A DNA stretch of 64,000 bases from Thermoplasmatales archaeon SW_10_69_26 (GTDB taxonomy: Archaea; Thermoplasmatota; SW-10-69-26): contig PXUB01000030.1 in assembly GCA_003009755.1 (NCBI GenBank), positions 36,638 to 100,637 of the forward strand, given 5' to 3'. Each line of letters opens with the position of its first letter. Position 1 is the first letter of the stretch. The notes below the pieces were generated by a model that was given only the letters and a program-made list of their open reading frames with translations, was not told where the DNA came from and made no database searches. This document shows, piece after piece, positions 6,902 to 51,329 of this stretch. The position numbers were made by a program, and so were the translations under genes.

Positions 6902-6949
6902 GCACAGAGACCAACCACAGAGGATAGCCTCCACAGAGAACACACGAGG
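6902..6949 (+). repeat. Cluster of NCACAGAG octamers (single arm related to the GxxExxY flanks)
   Basis: gcacagag 6902, ccacagag 6915, ccacagag 6931, between convergent genes. Confidence 0.5.
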
Positions 6950-42353: not shown

Positions 42354-42512
42354 GCGTAGTCACCTCTTCCGTCGACGACCAGTTCACCCAGCGCTACTTA
42401 AAGCTTCACGCGTCACGCCGACGGAGAAGCACCCCCAGCCGGGGGCAGGTTCCCCTTGAGACCCGTGCCGAGAGCGCAAACGCTTTTATACCGTGCCGGC
42501 TACCATTCCAAC

Positions 42513-43499
42513 GTGCGGGAGAAGCTCGTCGAACGCGTTCGCGGCATGATGGCCCAAGCGGGCTTCGCTGTGTCGGAGCCGCTCAGCCATCGCCCGATCA
42601 GCTTCGACTTCCTCGCGCGCCGGGACGAGAACTTCTACATCCTGAAGGTCCTGACCAACATCGACTCCCTGAGCGAGGAGGTCGCGCGCGAGATGCGCAT
42701 CCTCGCTCGCTTCCTCAACGGCCGGCCGCTGCTGGTCGGGATGAAGGCATCCAGCGCCCCGCTGGAGGCCGGCGCCGTCTACGTCCGCCACGGCATCCCG
42801 ATCCTCTCCGTCGAGGGCCTCAAGGACTACCTCATCGAGGGCGCGCCCCCGATGGCCTTCGCAGCTCCGGGCGGCTTCTGCGTGAAGCTCGACGGCGAGA
42901 AGCTCCACGCGATCCGGCAGGACGAGAACCTGTCCCTCGGCCAGCTGGCCGACGTCGCCGGCGTCTCCCGGCGCACGATCAGCATGTACGAGGACGGCAT
43001 GAGCGCCACCGTCGAGGCTGCCCTCCGCCTCGAGGAGTTCCTCGAGCGCCCGCTGATCCGCCCGATCGACCCCTTCGCCCGCACCGAGGACGACGAGGAG
43101 CCGGCCGAGCCGAACGAGATCGAGGACGTCTCCGACCCGTACACGCGCTCGATCTTCGACCTGCTCTCCGAGATGGGGTTCGGCATCGTGCCCACCGGGC
43201 GCAGCCCCTTCCACGGCATCGGGCTCGTCGACCCGGCCGAGTACGACCCCTCGGACCCCAACGAGGCGCTGCTCCTCACGGCCGCCTCCAAGAGCCGAAG
43301 CGTCGAGGACCGCGCGGCGCTGCTGCGCAGCGTGTCAACGATCTGCGAGCGCACCGCCCTGTTCATCACCGGCGACGACAAGGAGGGCCCCCACGGGACC
43401 GCGTTCGTCAAGAAGGAGAAGCTCGACCGCTTCGACGAGGTCGAGGGTCTCGTCGAGCTCGCTCGCGAGAGAGGCGAGAGCGGCGACGAGGACGAGTGA
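42513..43499 (+). CDS. Conserved archaeal Cro/C1 HTH regulator (COG1395/MJ1164-like)
   Basis: SFDFLARR, KVLTNIDSL, YVRHGIP, APGGF.V and LSLGQLADVAGVSRRTISMYEDG; TTTTATA box at 42484. Confidence 0.88.
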   Translation: MREKLVERVRGMMAQAGFAVSEPLSHRPISFDFLARRDENFYILKVLTNIDSLSEEVAREMRILARFLNGRPLLVGMKASSAPLEAGAVYVRHGIPILSVEGLKDYLIEGAPPMAFAAPGGFCVKLDGEKLHAIRQDENLSLGQLADVAGVSRRTISMYEDGMSATVEAALRLEEFLERPLIRPIDPFARTEDDEEPAEPNEIEDVSDPYTRSIFDLLSEMGFGIVPTGRSPFHGIGLVDPAEYDPSDPNEALLLTAASKSRSVEDRAALLRSVSTICERTALFITGDDKEGPHGTAFVKKEKLDRFDEVEGLVELARERGESGDEDE

Positions 43500-43526
43500 C
43501 GAACCGACGCGGGCGCGGTTGGCTCG

Positions 43527-44146
43527 GGGCACACAGAGATAAACAGGCACAGAGACACAGAGACCGGGCCGAGGGGGGGACGCCAGAAGCTTCAGAGCGC
43601 GACGCGTTCGACCCCGTCGACGAGCTGAGGCACGTTGAAGTTGATCAAGAGCCCGAGAGGTGCATTCGCCATCTCGAGGTACGTCAAAACCTGGCTCTTG
43701 AAGACCGGGTGGAGGTCCTCGGCGGCCTTGACCTCGACGACGAGGCGTTCGTCGATCGAGAGATCGATCCTGTAGGAGGCCTCCAGTTCTCGCACGCGGA
43801 ACCGAGCTGGGATCGTCACCTCCCGAGCGACCGAGAGCCCTGTATCCTCCAAGGCTTCCGCGAGGCATTCGACGTAGACCCTCTCGAGGAGACCGGGCCC
43901 GAGTTCCCTGTGAACCTCGATCGCAGCTCCGATCACGTCCCGACTCAGGGCGTTCAACGTAAGGGCCGGCTCCTCGGCGGTCGTGGCCGAACCTGACCGT
44001 CGTCCCTCGTCAGGGCTCTCCGGAACTGACACCGTCTCTGCGTGCCCCTCTCGTGGATCCCCCGATACCGTCCCTCCGAGGTCCCTGGATCCCGTGCAAC
44101 GCCTACGTTCCTCTGTGGCTCCGTGACTCGGTGCCTCTGTGTGCCC
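43527..44146. mobile_element. Candidate 620-bp element: GxxExxY gene between 36-bp inverted arms of tandem octamers
   Basis: Left gggc-acacagag-ataaacag-gcacagag-acacagag; reverse complement of right arm gggc-acacagag-gcaccgag-tcacggag-ccacagag. Confidence 0.6.
43592..44032 (-). CDS. GxxExxY protein (PD-(D/E)XK nuclease superfamily)
   Basis: VHRELGPGLLERVY, RIDL...VVEVKA, QVLTYL and GLLINF motifs. Confidence 0.92.
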   Translation of the reverse strand: MSVPESPDEGRRSGSATTAEEPALTLNALSRDVIGAAIEVHRELGPGLLERVYVECLAEALEDTGLSVAREVTIPARFRVRELEASYRIDLSIDERLVVEVKAAEDLHPVFKSQVLTYLEMANAPLGLLINFNVPQLVDGVERVAL

Positions 44147-44183
44147 AGCGGCGACCGCAACCGCGGACCGCTCGGTCCGTCCA

Positions 44184-47100
44184 CTAGGGCTGCTCGCCGC
44201 TCCAGATCTTCACGTCGCCCTCCGGCTTGGCGATGCAGGTGAGCACGTAGTCCTCCTGCTCCTCGTCGGAGAGCACCTGGCCCTCGCTCTGGTCGGGCGC
44301 GGCGCCCTCCCACTTCGCCGAGCAGCTCACGCAGGAGCCGGCCCGGCAGTCGAAGGGCAGGTCGTCGAAGCCGTGCCGCTCGGCGGCGTCGAGGATCGAC
44401 TCGTCCTCGTAGACGGGGATCGCGGCGTTCTGCTTGACGAGCTCGACGCGGTGGGCGTCGTCGGGGATGTCGAACTCCTCGAACTCCTCCTCGCCGCCCA
44501 CGTCCACGTCGGCGAGATCGACCCCGCCCTCGCGCGTCTCCATGCGCTCGGCCACGAGGTCGTGCACCGTGACCACGTCGACGCCGGCGTCGTCGAGCAC
44601 GTAGGCCAGGTCGGTGCAACCGACCAGGACCGTGCCCGACAGCTCGGTCTGCGCCTTCGTCGTCAGGGCCTCGGTCTGGTTGGGATTCACGAGCGCGTAC
44701 GCGCGATCGGGGATCAGCGTGTCCCCGATGTCGGCCACCTCGGCCTCCACGTCGGGCAGGAACTCGGCGAGGTCCTCGAGCGCGGCGCGCTCGCTGTCCT
44801 TGGCGAACGGCGAGTGGAGGATCGTGGCCTCGATCGTCTCGAAGCCCTCCTCGTCCTCATCGCCGCCGTCGGCGTCCTCGCTCTCTTCGTCGGCGTCTTG
44901 GTCGGCCTCGCTGTCCTCGTCCCCGGCGGCGTCCTCGTCGTCGGCTTCGGCGTCCTGGTCGTCGCCTTGGCCTTGGAAGGTCAGCCGGCCGGCCTTGGCG
45001 AGGCTGGCGGTGACCTCGGTCGCGGTGAGGATCCGAGGCGAGTATCCCTCGTGGTCGGTGTCCGCGAGCAGGTCGTCGAGGCGTCGGCGGAGGACGTCGG
45101 CGTCCTCGCTGGACAGCGTGACCAGGGTCGAGGGACGCTCGCCGTCGAGCAGGTCCATCGCCTCGTCGATCAGCTGGCTCGTCTGCTGGGAGGCTTCGGC
45201 GAAGGCGCCCAGACGGTAGGGCACGGTGCCGAGGTGGACCTCGTCCTCGCCGAGCGTGGTGAACCCGAACCCGGCGTTCTGGAAGGCGTTGAAGACGCTC
45301 AGCGCGTCGTCGGTTCGATCGAAGGCGGCCTGGTCGCCGGTGACGAGCAGCGTCGTCGTGTCGACACCGCTCGGGACGGCGCTGGGCAGCCAGTCGCCGC
45401 GCGTCTCGGGGTCCTCGCCGAGCACGTTGTCGGTTTCCTCGAGGTCGTCGACGACGTCCTGCACGCGGGGGTCGAGCCCGCAGGCGGCCTGGCCGGCCTC
45501 GCGGACGGCCTCGATCGTCCCCAGGATCGGCGTGCCGTTCTGGCTGTTGTCCTCGTAGGTCGGCACGGCCGGCAGCGACAGCGCGTGCGAGACCATCTGC
45601 TCGGTGGGCTCGTTGCCCTCGATGATGGCTCGGGCGCTGGCGACGACGCCGCGCGGCAGCTGGGTGTCGAAGCGGACCGCGCGCACGATCGAGCGGGGGC
45701 GCTCCTGCTCGAAGCTGATGCCTCGGTGCAGCTCGCCGGTGCGGTTCGTGTGGCCTTGGCGCGAGCAGCGCTGGACGCCGTCGGTCAGGCTGCCGAGCCG
45801 CTTGGACAGCCGGCGGCCGTACACGCTGTTGAGCGCCCGGTTGGAGGGCTCCATCGAGGAGCCGCGCCGGTGGTCGTACTGGGCGCGGGCGCTCTTCAGC
45901 ATGAGGTTGCCGGGCACGACGGCGGCGCTCGTCGGGATGAACGGGATCCCCTTGACGCCGGCCGCCAGCACCTTGCCCGGGTTCATGATGTTCTCCGGGT
46001 CGTTGGCCGTCTTCCAGGACGACAGACGCTCGACGCGGTCCTTGCCGAGCACGTCCTTGCCCTCGCCCGGCGTCAACAGGCCGGGCGCGACGGCGGAGCC
46101 GCCGGCGGACTTGACCGCGTCGAGGAACGCCAGCCGGTTGCCCCAGGCCAGCGGCCAGCTGGGCAGCCGGCGGTCGCCGAGCACGTTGAGCACGAGGGTG
46201 AACTCGTCGGGGCCGCTGGCGATGGCCCAGATGGACCACTCGCGGGCCTCGACGGCTTCCATACCGGCTTGCCAAGCCTCGGTGAGATCCTCGCGCGAGC
46301 ACTTGGCCTTCGCGACGAGGAGCGAGGGACCGTAGCGCTGGAAGTTGCGCTGCTGGTAGCGGCGCTCCCACTCCCAGCTGGCCTTGTCCTCCTCGACCCA
46401 CTCACCGTCGAGCGTGTCGACGCGGGCCTCGAGGTCGGGCACGAGCTCCTCGGCCTTCTCGTCCTCGATCGTGTGGATGACGACGTAGCTGTCCTTGGGG
46501 AGGGCCCGAGCGGTCTCGGGCTCCATCTTGAGGTCGACGTGGCGGGGCCCGAGGATGTGGACGTGCCGGATGCCGTCGTGGGGGAGGCCGCCGATGTAGC
46601 TCTCGGCGCCGGCGATCGAGTCGAAGGCCGCTGCCGTCGGGTGCGTGTCGGTGCGCTCCTCGAGCCGGAGCTCGACCTCGGTGACGAACCCGGTCGAGCC
46701 TTGGCAGCCCTCGGTCAGATCGAGGCCTTCGCCGCGACGGTTCTCGAGGTCCAGGCTCGTCGACAGCACCTCGGCCTCGACCACGTTGTCGCGGATCGAG
46801 CCGGAGGTGTACGAACCGAACCCGGCCTTGCCCATCGCCAGCGCGCCGCCGACCGTGGAGTAGGGGGCCTCGATCGGTTCGGCGCGGGCGCGCAGCCCGT
46901 GCTCGGCGAGCTTCTCGTCGAGATCGGCCCAGGTCAGGCCGGCGCGGACGCGGGCCTGCATGGCGTCCTCGTCGACCTCGAGCACGTCGTCGAAGCCGCG
47001 CATGTCGGCCACGATGCCGCCCTCGACGGGCACGGCGCCGCCGTGGACGCTGGTCCCGCCGCCGCGGGGGACGACGGGGATCTGGTTGTTGCGGGCGAAC

Positions 47101-50924: not shown

Positions 50925-51329
50925 GAGCCAGCAACCGAGAAGGTCCTCTTCAGTTCCCGGGTGAACGGGGAAGAAACCAAACGGAGGACGGCCGGGGCAA
51001 CCGGTCCCAGAGGGACGCCGACGGTGGCAGCTGGGCGTATCGATGGAGGCGGCGACGATCCCCCAGGCCCCCGGCAGCGGGGCATGCCCGCCGCCAGCTC
51101 ACCCGGCCGCGCTCCCGGGAGGCTCTGGCGGTCCGCCGCTGGTCTCCTCCATCCGCTTCCGTCATCGTTCTCCCCCGCCCTTCCGCCGTCCCCTCTGAGG
51201 CTGTGGTCGCTGCCCGTCCCTTCCCCCTCTGTGGTATCCGATCTGGCTGTTCGTCTCTGTGGTCGGGTTCGCCACTCTGCGCCCTCCCTCCGCGCAACGT
51301 TTCATGAACCCCGACGTCTTGCGGTCGCC

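Follow-up and report, generated by a model that had tools for sequence, protein, structure and literature searches.

The spacer between two convergent genes of the Thermoplasmatales archaeon SW_10_69_26 is filled by a small unit that consists of a single nuclease gene and two inverted arms of phased short repeats. Comparison with related and with more distant genomes confirmed that this nuclease-plus-arms cassette is real and widespread across bacteria and archaea. We read the segment of about 684 bp as one copy of a self-contained, selfish cassette that combines a REP/RAYT-like logic with a homing-like mechanism, a reading to which we assign a probability of roughly one half. In the full texts that were searched by family names and identifiers, a collection that does not extend to subscription journals, no published account of a nuclease-plus-arms cassette or of a function for the protein family was found, and the nuclease-plus-repeat cassette is apparently undescribed.

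The window, i.e. the whole stretch of 64,000 nucleotides that was analysed, corresponds to C30:36638-100637 of the source genome, which comprises 2.82 Mb in 49 contigs with a G+C content of 69% and a completeness of 95%. The sequencing runs containing this stretch are halite metagenomes, and no RNA run was among those listed with it. The first-pass annotation had described a lone GxxExxY ORF with intact motifs between two convergent genes. This description was correct: the ORF is the only one between the two genes (43499-44184), it matches both PF13366 and TIGR04256, and all conserved residues are present. It is codirectional with the ferredoxin-domain gene upstream of it. The product of the latter is itself an unusual fusion, with an N-terminal FAD_binding_4 domain, a long acidic linker and a C-terminal plant-type 2Fe-2S ferredoxin domain. 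The coordinates of these and the other features are collected in Table 1.

Table 1. Features of the cassette locus and related elements (positions refer to the window unless a contig, locus or record is named)
Feature	Position	Strand	Basis or remark
Gene-less array of three CACAGAG units, same repeat family as the arms, in another convergent spacer	6903..6938	+	word and array search
PRK04140-type HTH regulator	42456-43499	+	profile matches
Strain-variable module	43487..44183		halite contig matches end at 43486 and 44184
Left arm	43498..43562		begins at regulator stop codon; sequence and inverted repeats
GxxExxY / PDDEXK_3 gene, 146 aa, GTG start, domain residues 28-144	43592-44032	-	profiles, alignment, AlphaFold2
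Third, internal arm-head copy (reverse complement of GGGGCACGCAGAGA)	44035-44048		14 nt, 13/14 (93%) match
Right arm, mirror of left	44111..44181		ends 2 nt before stop codon of ferredoxin-domain gene
FAD_binding_4 + 2Fe-2S ferredoxin protein, 1072 aa	44184-47402	-	profile matches
Gene-less array, GGCGAACCCGAC-type-head subfamily, without inverted partner	51227..51261	-	word and array search
Phased arrays of other families (GCCTCCCAA; GCAGAG)	C25:24907, C43:7466, C43:69995, C43:70258; C17:23978, C20:4538, C21:14279		
Halite strain contigs	X2 records 2, 3; X3 records 10, 11; X5 records 28, 29		
Cassette copies of the Pirellulaceae MAG	L055, L057, L059, L063, L064, L065, L090		CAVYFC01 contigs

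The left arm is composed of an outer palindromic part (43498-43526), the head GGGCACACAGAG (43527-43538) and three NCACAGAG-type 8-mers, one of which is degenerate. The right arm shows four 8-mers, then the head at 44135-44146 as the reverse complement of GGGCACACAGAG, and again an outer palindromic part. Thus the inverted arms of 36 bp with a 12-bp head and four in-register 8-mers each, as originally reported, are all present in the sequence. The extra unit noticed near 44036 is real as well; it lies directly upstream of the GTG start and is absent from the sister cassette on contig C36. The unit length of 620 bp had to be revised. The inverted repeat extends the arms to 55 nt (43508-43562 / 44111-44165, 75% complementary) and is followed by a further outer inverted pair (43498-43521 / 44158-44181). 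Since it runs to 43498 and 44181, the entire stretch from one stop codon to the other is taken up by an imperfect palindrome of about 684 bp. Target-site duplications had not been visible in the initial inspection, and likewise none was seen by us at the ends of the window cassette. Neither arm alone folded better than shuffled sequences (z -1.0 and -1.6), and a scan against Rfam gave nothing above the gathering score.

The product of the GxxExxY gene was recognised unambiguously by the PF13366 (PDDEXK_3) profile (E 9.3e-36, 123.2 bits against a cut-off of 22) and by the TIGR04256 (GxxExxY) profile (E 3.6e-36, 124 bits against a cut-off of 35). In an alignment of 29 sequences G17, E22, Y25, D62 and Y90 were invariant and E72, K74 and Q86 were conserved in at least 90%; the window protein possesses all of them, so that the D, ExK and QxxxY motifs are intact together with the motif that gave the family its name. 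AlphaFold2 yielded a confident model of a compact alpha/beta protein (pLDDT 97.1). With this model Foldseek placed Cas4 on top (E 1.5e-3, TM 0.56), and lambda exonuclease and Hjc were also found. All of these matches were weak and none reached E ≤0.001; the structural neighbours included the Cas4 / RecB-family entries 4r5q and 4ic1 and lambda exonuclease 3sm4 of the PDB. A profile search of PDB sequences gave no significant match to solved chains, with Cas4 alone appearing at E 0.35. The motif order D...ExK...QxxxY is presumably that of the RecB-family nucleases, and the window protein has it in common with Cas4/RecB nucleases and lambda exonuclease. We therefore predict from profile, alignment and model that it is a minimal nuclease of the RecB/Cas4-like branch of PD-(D/E)XK enzymes. 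RecB-family nucleases hydrolyse DNA and cannot join it. Unlike Cas4, the window protein has a domain of only about 117 aa, and since there is no cysteine among the conserved columns of the 29 sequences, no sign of a Cas4-type Fe-S cluster can be recognised. Nor does the GxxExxY locus show a CRISPR context. PF13366/TIGR04256 is a very large family, the function of which is given as unknown in one review (PMC3424549).

Arms of this kind are a regular companion of GxxExxY genes. Arms were scored by comparing the 350 nt upstream of a gene with the reverse complement of the 300 nt downstream, with a threshold of 36. A total of 110 loci was collected, 30 from related genomes and 80 from named genomes retrieved with the window protein as query, and 106 of them had enough flanking sequence. 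The 80 loci span Planctomycetota, Verrucomicrobiota, Bacteroidota, Acidobacteriota, Chloroflexota, Cyanobacteria, Proteobacteria, Gemmatimonadota, Myxococcota and one archaeon; cultured hosts such as Caenispirillum bisanense and Novipirellula sp. are among them. A score of at least 36 was reached by 83 of the 106 loci and by 15 of 1835 crudely called genes of the source genome. Among the relatives, where PF13366 has a patchy distribution (14 of 41 genomes), the matched arms scored above the 95th percentile of mismatched pairs in 25 of the 29 loci with enough flank, with a median of 48 for matched and 20 for mismatched arms. In other words, each arm matches its partner in the cassette but not arms taken from elsewhere. 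The suggestion of the first-pass annotation that inverted arms are commoner beside GxxExxY genes than beside random genes was thereby borne out, and a chance meeting of arms and gene can be rejected on the basis of the mismatched pairs and the control genes.

The arms also follow a common plan. The frame NNCNNAG fits 57 of 77 distinct arm pairs with at least two units per arm, and 148 of 182 spacings between units measure 8 or 9 nt. The unit itself varies from cassette to cassette (CACAGAG, CACGGAG, CGCAAAG, CGCAGAG, CGCCAAG, AACGGAG and others). The layout is constant: the left units run from the outside in, their complement is found on the right, and the downstream arm is found near the stop codon. 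In many of the bacterial cases the gap between the upstream arm and the matched portion of the gene measures about 20 nt. Five loci from Planctomycetota (L071, L081, L085, L105 and L111) show a complete arm-loop-arm hairpin on each side, and thus a hairpin-gene-hairpin structure in place of arm-gene-arm. Relatives of the protein were rare on plasmids (8 in 72,556 records), and none was detected by tblastn in 50,697 phage records.

The junction between the regulator and the ferredoxin-domain gene differs widely among related archaea. In two genomes of the same family, G001 and G004, the two genes are adjacent, with spacers of 19 and about 50 nt, respectively, and no cassette. Empty sites between the regulator and the flavoprotein gene, for which the first-pass annotation had proposed a search in relatives, do therefore exist. 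The junction holds another gene in G003 and G005 and two membrane-protein genes in G019. In G010, which belongs to another family of the class, a gene-less array is located there (L119, on its contig C17), composed of three CTATAGG units and a G/A-rich tail. A GxxExxY cassette abuts the same end of the ferredoxin gene in G014, a member of another family. Its protein falls into another clade (42% identity), its units are of the type GGCGCCAAG and its orientation is opposite, so that it is not an orthologue of the window cassette. At the same place G016 has a PF13366 match that is interrupted by a single TGA codon. A second empty site was found for the sister cassette on C36, the junction of which is empty in G001 as read by eye from the protein ends; a DNA search with the gene to the left of this cassette gave no match among the relatives, and G001 was the only one in which an empty site could be recognised.

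Turnover was seen at a much shorter distance as well. Contigs from three halite runs of one other study have flanks that are 93-99% identical to those of the window (98-99% for the longest), and the matches stop exactly at 43486 and 44184. Beyond these points most of the contigs carry unlike sequence, up to 632 and 483 nt of it. Because the contigs break at these two positions, close strains differ in exactly the cassette module. The window cassette itself is held by a fourth halite run from yet another study. Among the halite contig matches no joint across the gap 43486/44184 was reported, and an exact 24-nt pattern from the end of the regulator gene had no match in the metagenome contigs searched for alternative alleles. 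The replacement at strain level could be plain homologous recombination in the conserved flanks. With the junctions empty in G001 and G004, the second empty site for C36 and the unlike DNA in near-identical strains, the locus is not fixed by vertical inheritance.

That cassettes can multiply within a genome is evident from one Pirellulaceae genome, in which seven copies, near-identical over about 640 bp, are found in different flanks. The repeated unit extends about 70 nt past each octamer arm, and one copy is situated about 0.5 kb behind another. Older, weaker repeats are common to the flanks of the seven copies. No target-site duplication was visible at any of the seven.

The arm units also occur without the gene. 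The bare word CACAGAG is not enriched: there are 11 occurrences in the window with 8.0 expected, a number reached by 24 of 100 shuffles, and genome-wide there are 185 with about 293 expected from base composition. Arrays of at least three loose units, on the other hand, number 34 in the source genome against 0.19 expected (maximum 2 in 200 random placements), which means that the word is clustered far above chance and that dispersed gene-less arrays of arm units do occur. According to a crude gene map at least 25 of the 34 arrays are intergenic, mostly in spacers at gene ends, and about 22 are solo, i.e. without an inverted partner. One solo subfamily, distinguished by a GGCGAACCCGAC-type head some 25 nt long, is without an inverted partner in every case (window 51180-51290, C17:9285, C22:22589, C36:49202 and C40:11422). 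Other phased arrays of short units (GCCTCCCAA or GCAGAG) were noticed in spacers of the source genome with no adjoining GxxExxY gene; a general search for phased 6-mer arrays of any sequence was dominated by codon repeats.

Five inverted array pairs were found in the source genome. Three enclose a nuclease gene, one a PKD-like lipoprotein ORF, and one is gene-less (221 nt); no gene remnants were detected by tblastn within gene-less arm pairs of this genome. The pair around the lipoprotein ORF (L123, C29:20650-22154) is strong, with a score of 72; its arms lie 1.4 kb apart around an ORF of 215 aa, without a nuclease, and it may be a cassette with other cargo. The three GxxExxY loci of the CACAGAG type, on C30, C36 and C35, all have arms on both sides. 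Their genes are pairwise only 70% and 46-48% identical and are therefore not recent copies of each other. One of them is broken: the gene on C35 (L124, C35:11297-11886) is interrupted by a dispersed repeat about 200 nt long, which looks MITE-like and is found elsewhere in the genome in three full-length copies with 94-97% identity, one with 76% and one fragment of 30 nt. A fourth GxxExxY gene, a more distant paralogue, is preceded by a CACGAAG-like array and lies at the end of contig C20, where its downstream flank is missing. With arms of the window cassette matching at 75%, most arrays solo and one gene broken, the CACAGAG family looks old in the source genome.

In the relatives the gene-less form is a clean arm-loop-arm hairpin. 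A copy from G006 (L131) was folded and gave a stem of about 43 bp that is paired throughout (-51.8 kcal/mol, z -13.6). Two patterns of unit dimers were tried: CACAGAG or CACGGAG dimers reached at least five hits in 9 of the 14 genomes with PF13366, and the 27 genomes without it had at most two hits per pattern. The latter include G001 and G004 of the same family and G008 of the same class, which fall inside the two carrier families. The contrast is inflated by kinship. The link between a repeat family and its own cassette is looser. G006 (99% complete) has 86 CACAGAG dimer hits and about 43 hairpins, but the units of its three cassettes are GCGACG, CACGAAG and one other type; in G002, 49 hits for the CACGGAG dimer are not matched by any cassette with this unit. 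These two families without a cognate cassette argue against each nuclease reading its own units.

A covariation of unit sequence and protein tree, which the first-pass annotation had proposed as a check, was found in part. The tree of 57 cassettes is poorly resolved, with 31 of 53 forks open. It requires 32 changes of the unit label, compared with a mean of 41.8 and a minimum of 35 for shuffled labels. There is thus some signal, but it is weak: only unit position 1 clusters clearly on the tree, and positions 2, 4 and 5 are near random. Moreover, gene and arms are linked, so a signal of this strength can be explained without the protein recognising the units. Between the two arms of one cassette the unit cores are 91.7% identical and the spacers between the units 72.5%. 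As the spacers are also alike, arm complementarity itself may be kept.

The architecture of the cassette, the matching of its arms, its turnover and multiplication and its co-occurrence with gene-less repeats were observed directly; each step that involves the protein we infer. The cassette is made up of one gene for a predicted minimal nuclease between inverted arms, each with a head and 2-5 phased NNCNNAG units of 8-9 bp. The arms would serve as the cis-acting sites of the element, and the nuclease would act on them, most likely when they are folded back as a hairpin or cruciform. Positions C3, A6 and G7 of the unit would be those that are read, with the variable positions free to drift and homogenised within each cassette. 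Because a hydrolytic nuclease cannot join DNA, host recombination or repair, rather than transposition, would have to complete the process, either by copying into matching arms or by loss or deletion, in a homing-like gene conversion. The first-pass annotation had envisaged spread without a DDE or HUH transposase, in the manner of RAYT/REP. This agrees with the turnover, with the dispersed arrays and with the fact that no Y1/HUH transposase (PF01797) was detected in the 95%-complete source genome (as a control, it was found in six genomes); the cognate pairing of gene and repeat that the comparison implies fails in G006 and G002.

A bolder version of this scheme we consider less likely than not. 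GxxExxY cassettes would then be a new autonomous class of elements in bacteria and archaea, in which the nuclease reads NNCNNAG on folded arms, cuts, and copies its gene into matching gene-less hairpins by homology-directed repair. The hairpin families would serve as its landing pads, and a hidden turnover of genomes would be driven by a protein family that ranks among the largest orphan ones. A constant genomic context would offer a first testable role for PF13366/TIGR04256. If the nuclease does work on its own arms, archaea and many bacterial phyla harbour a selfish element whose enzyme belongs to a class so far not known to propagate repeats of this kind, and many short phased intergenic arrays and hairpins now taken for terminators or regulator sites would be explained. 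The units are short, phased and variable between cassettes, which makes binding and cleavage assays simple to design.

It might be thought that mobility resides in the arms or hairpins themselves, which a different enzyme of the host or of an element would move, with the GxxExxY gene as their commonest passenger, perhaps kept for a benefit in repair or defence. The large hairpin and array families without a cognate cassette in G006 and G002 would be explained in this way. So would the solo state of about 22 of the 34 arrays of the source genome, the strong arm pair around a non-nuclease ORF on C29 and the weak covariation of unit type and protein tree, observations that we also counted against the cassette reading, as we did the weak Cas4 fold matches and the rarity on plasmids and absence from phage records. 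However, no other enzyme gene accompanies the arms, the source genome lacks a detectable Y1 transposase, and the arms are paired with one protein family from archaea to Planctomycetota, Bacteroidota, Cyanobacteria and others. Genomes without PF13366, furthermore, hardly contain the repeats, with no more than two dimer hits per pattern. On balance we consider the passenger role rather unlikely.

The cassette might also act at the RNA level, like the ORF-bearing intervening sequences (IVS) of 23S rRNA: the arms would pair in a read-through transcript, a double-strand RNase of the host would excise the stem, and the arms would be kept for RNA pairing. Excision from the transcript would make the cassette harmless between genes. 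Both arms would indeed be cotranscribed, because the gene is codirectional with the upstream ferredoxin-domain gene; the short distance between upstream arm and gene at many bacterial loci leaves little room for a promoter, and arm complementarity continues into the spacers between the units. Yet RNase III (PF14622) was not detected in the 95%-complete source genome, while as a control it was found in eight bacteria, and arm mismatches show no G-U-compatible bias on the sense strand (122 versus 111, p 0.51). Together with the missing Rfam family at threshold, this speaks against an IVS-like stem processed by RNase III, other roles of the RNA being possible, and a plain stem has no need of phased, conserved NNCNNAG units. 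We regard the explanation as improbable. Still less probable, and indeed very much so, is a resident host gene for a housekeeping or stress nuclease, vertically inherited, with arrays that act as operators, other regulatory sites or terminators. The preference of the arrays for gene-end spacers and the additional head copy immediately in front of the start codon would suit such a gene. The patchy distribution among the relatives would not, nor would orthologous junctions that are empty, non-orthologous cassettes at one junction, seven near-identical copies in one genome and broken gene copies; and the sister cassette on C36 lacks the internal head copy.

The selfish cassette that we prefer resembles several known systems without being identical to any of them. 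A parallel in organisation is REPIN/RAYT, for which the literature (PMC3116915, PMC3337134 and bioRxiv 10.1101/2022.05.22.493013) describes RAYTs as single-copy and mostly vertically inherited. Both systems have an enzyme gene flanked by inverted copies of a short repeat, both have the same repeat dispersed as gene-less, hairpin-forming copies in spacers, and in both the repeats are confined to genomes with the gene family. The enzyme of the GxxExxY cassette, however, is a PD-(D/E)XK hydrolase and not a Y1/HUH transposase, its arms are tandem, phased 8-9-mers and not a single palindrome, and the gene is patchily distributed, with several diverged copies per genome. In addition, repeat families of the GxxExxY type exist without the cognate gene, as in G006 and G002. 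A likeness of another kind is offered by the helix-45 IVS of the 23S rRNA of Coxiella burnetii, which has 428 nt and carries an S23p ORF (PMC4990558). Both are small selfish inserts with pairable inverted ends around one small ORF, tolerated where they are harmless. They differ in that the GxxExxY cassette lies between protein genes and not in an rRNA helix, has an ORF from another family and arms of phased units, and in our case resides in a genome without detectable RNase III and shows no wobble bias on the sense strand.

The suggested mechanism has its parallel in homing. Free-standing homing endonuclease genes are lone nuclease genes without transposase or integrase that are patchily distributed and horizontally spread, and the gene of a hydrolytic nuclease can be copied only if the host repairs a cut. 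Empty alleles exist for the cassette sites, too (in G001 and G004 at the window junction and in G001 at the C36 junction). The homing genes described so far have as their target either a conserved gene or the site of an intron or intein and are not known to possess inverted arrays of tandem units or gene-less repeat families, and the window protein has no significant sequence match to any solved chain. Finally, insertion sequences and MITEs have terminal inverted repeats, short gene-less derivatives, multiple copies and a tendency to insert into spacers, all of which is likewise true of GxxExxY cassettes. They are set apart from the latter by their transposases: the GxxExxY unit contains no gene for a DDE or other transposase, the nuclease being the only ORF with a family match. 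Target-site duplications were seen neither at the window locus nor at the seven Pirellulaceae copies, and the ends of the cassette are made of iterated units.
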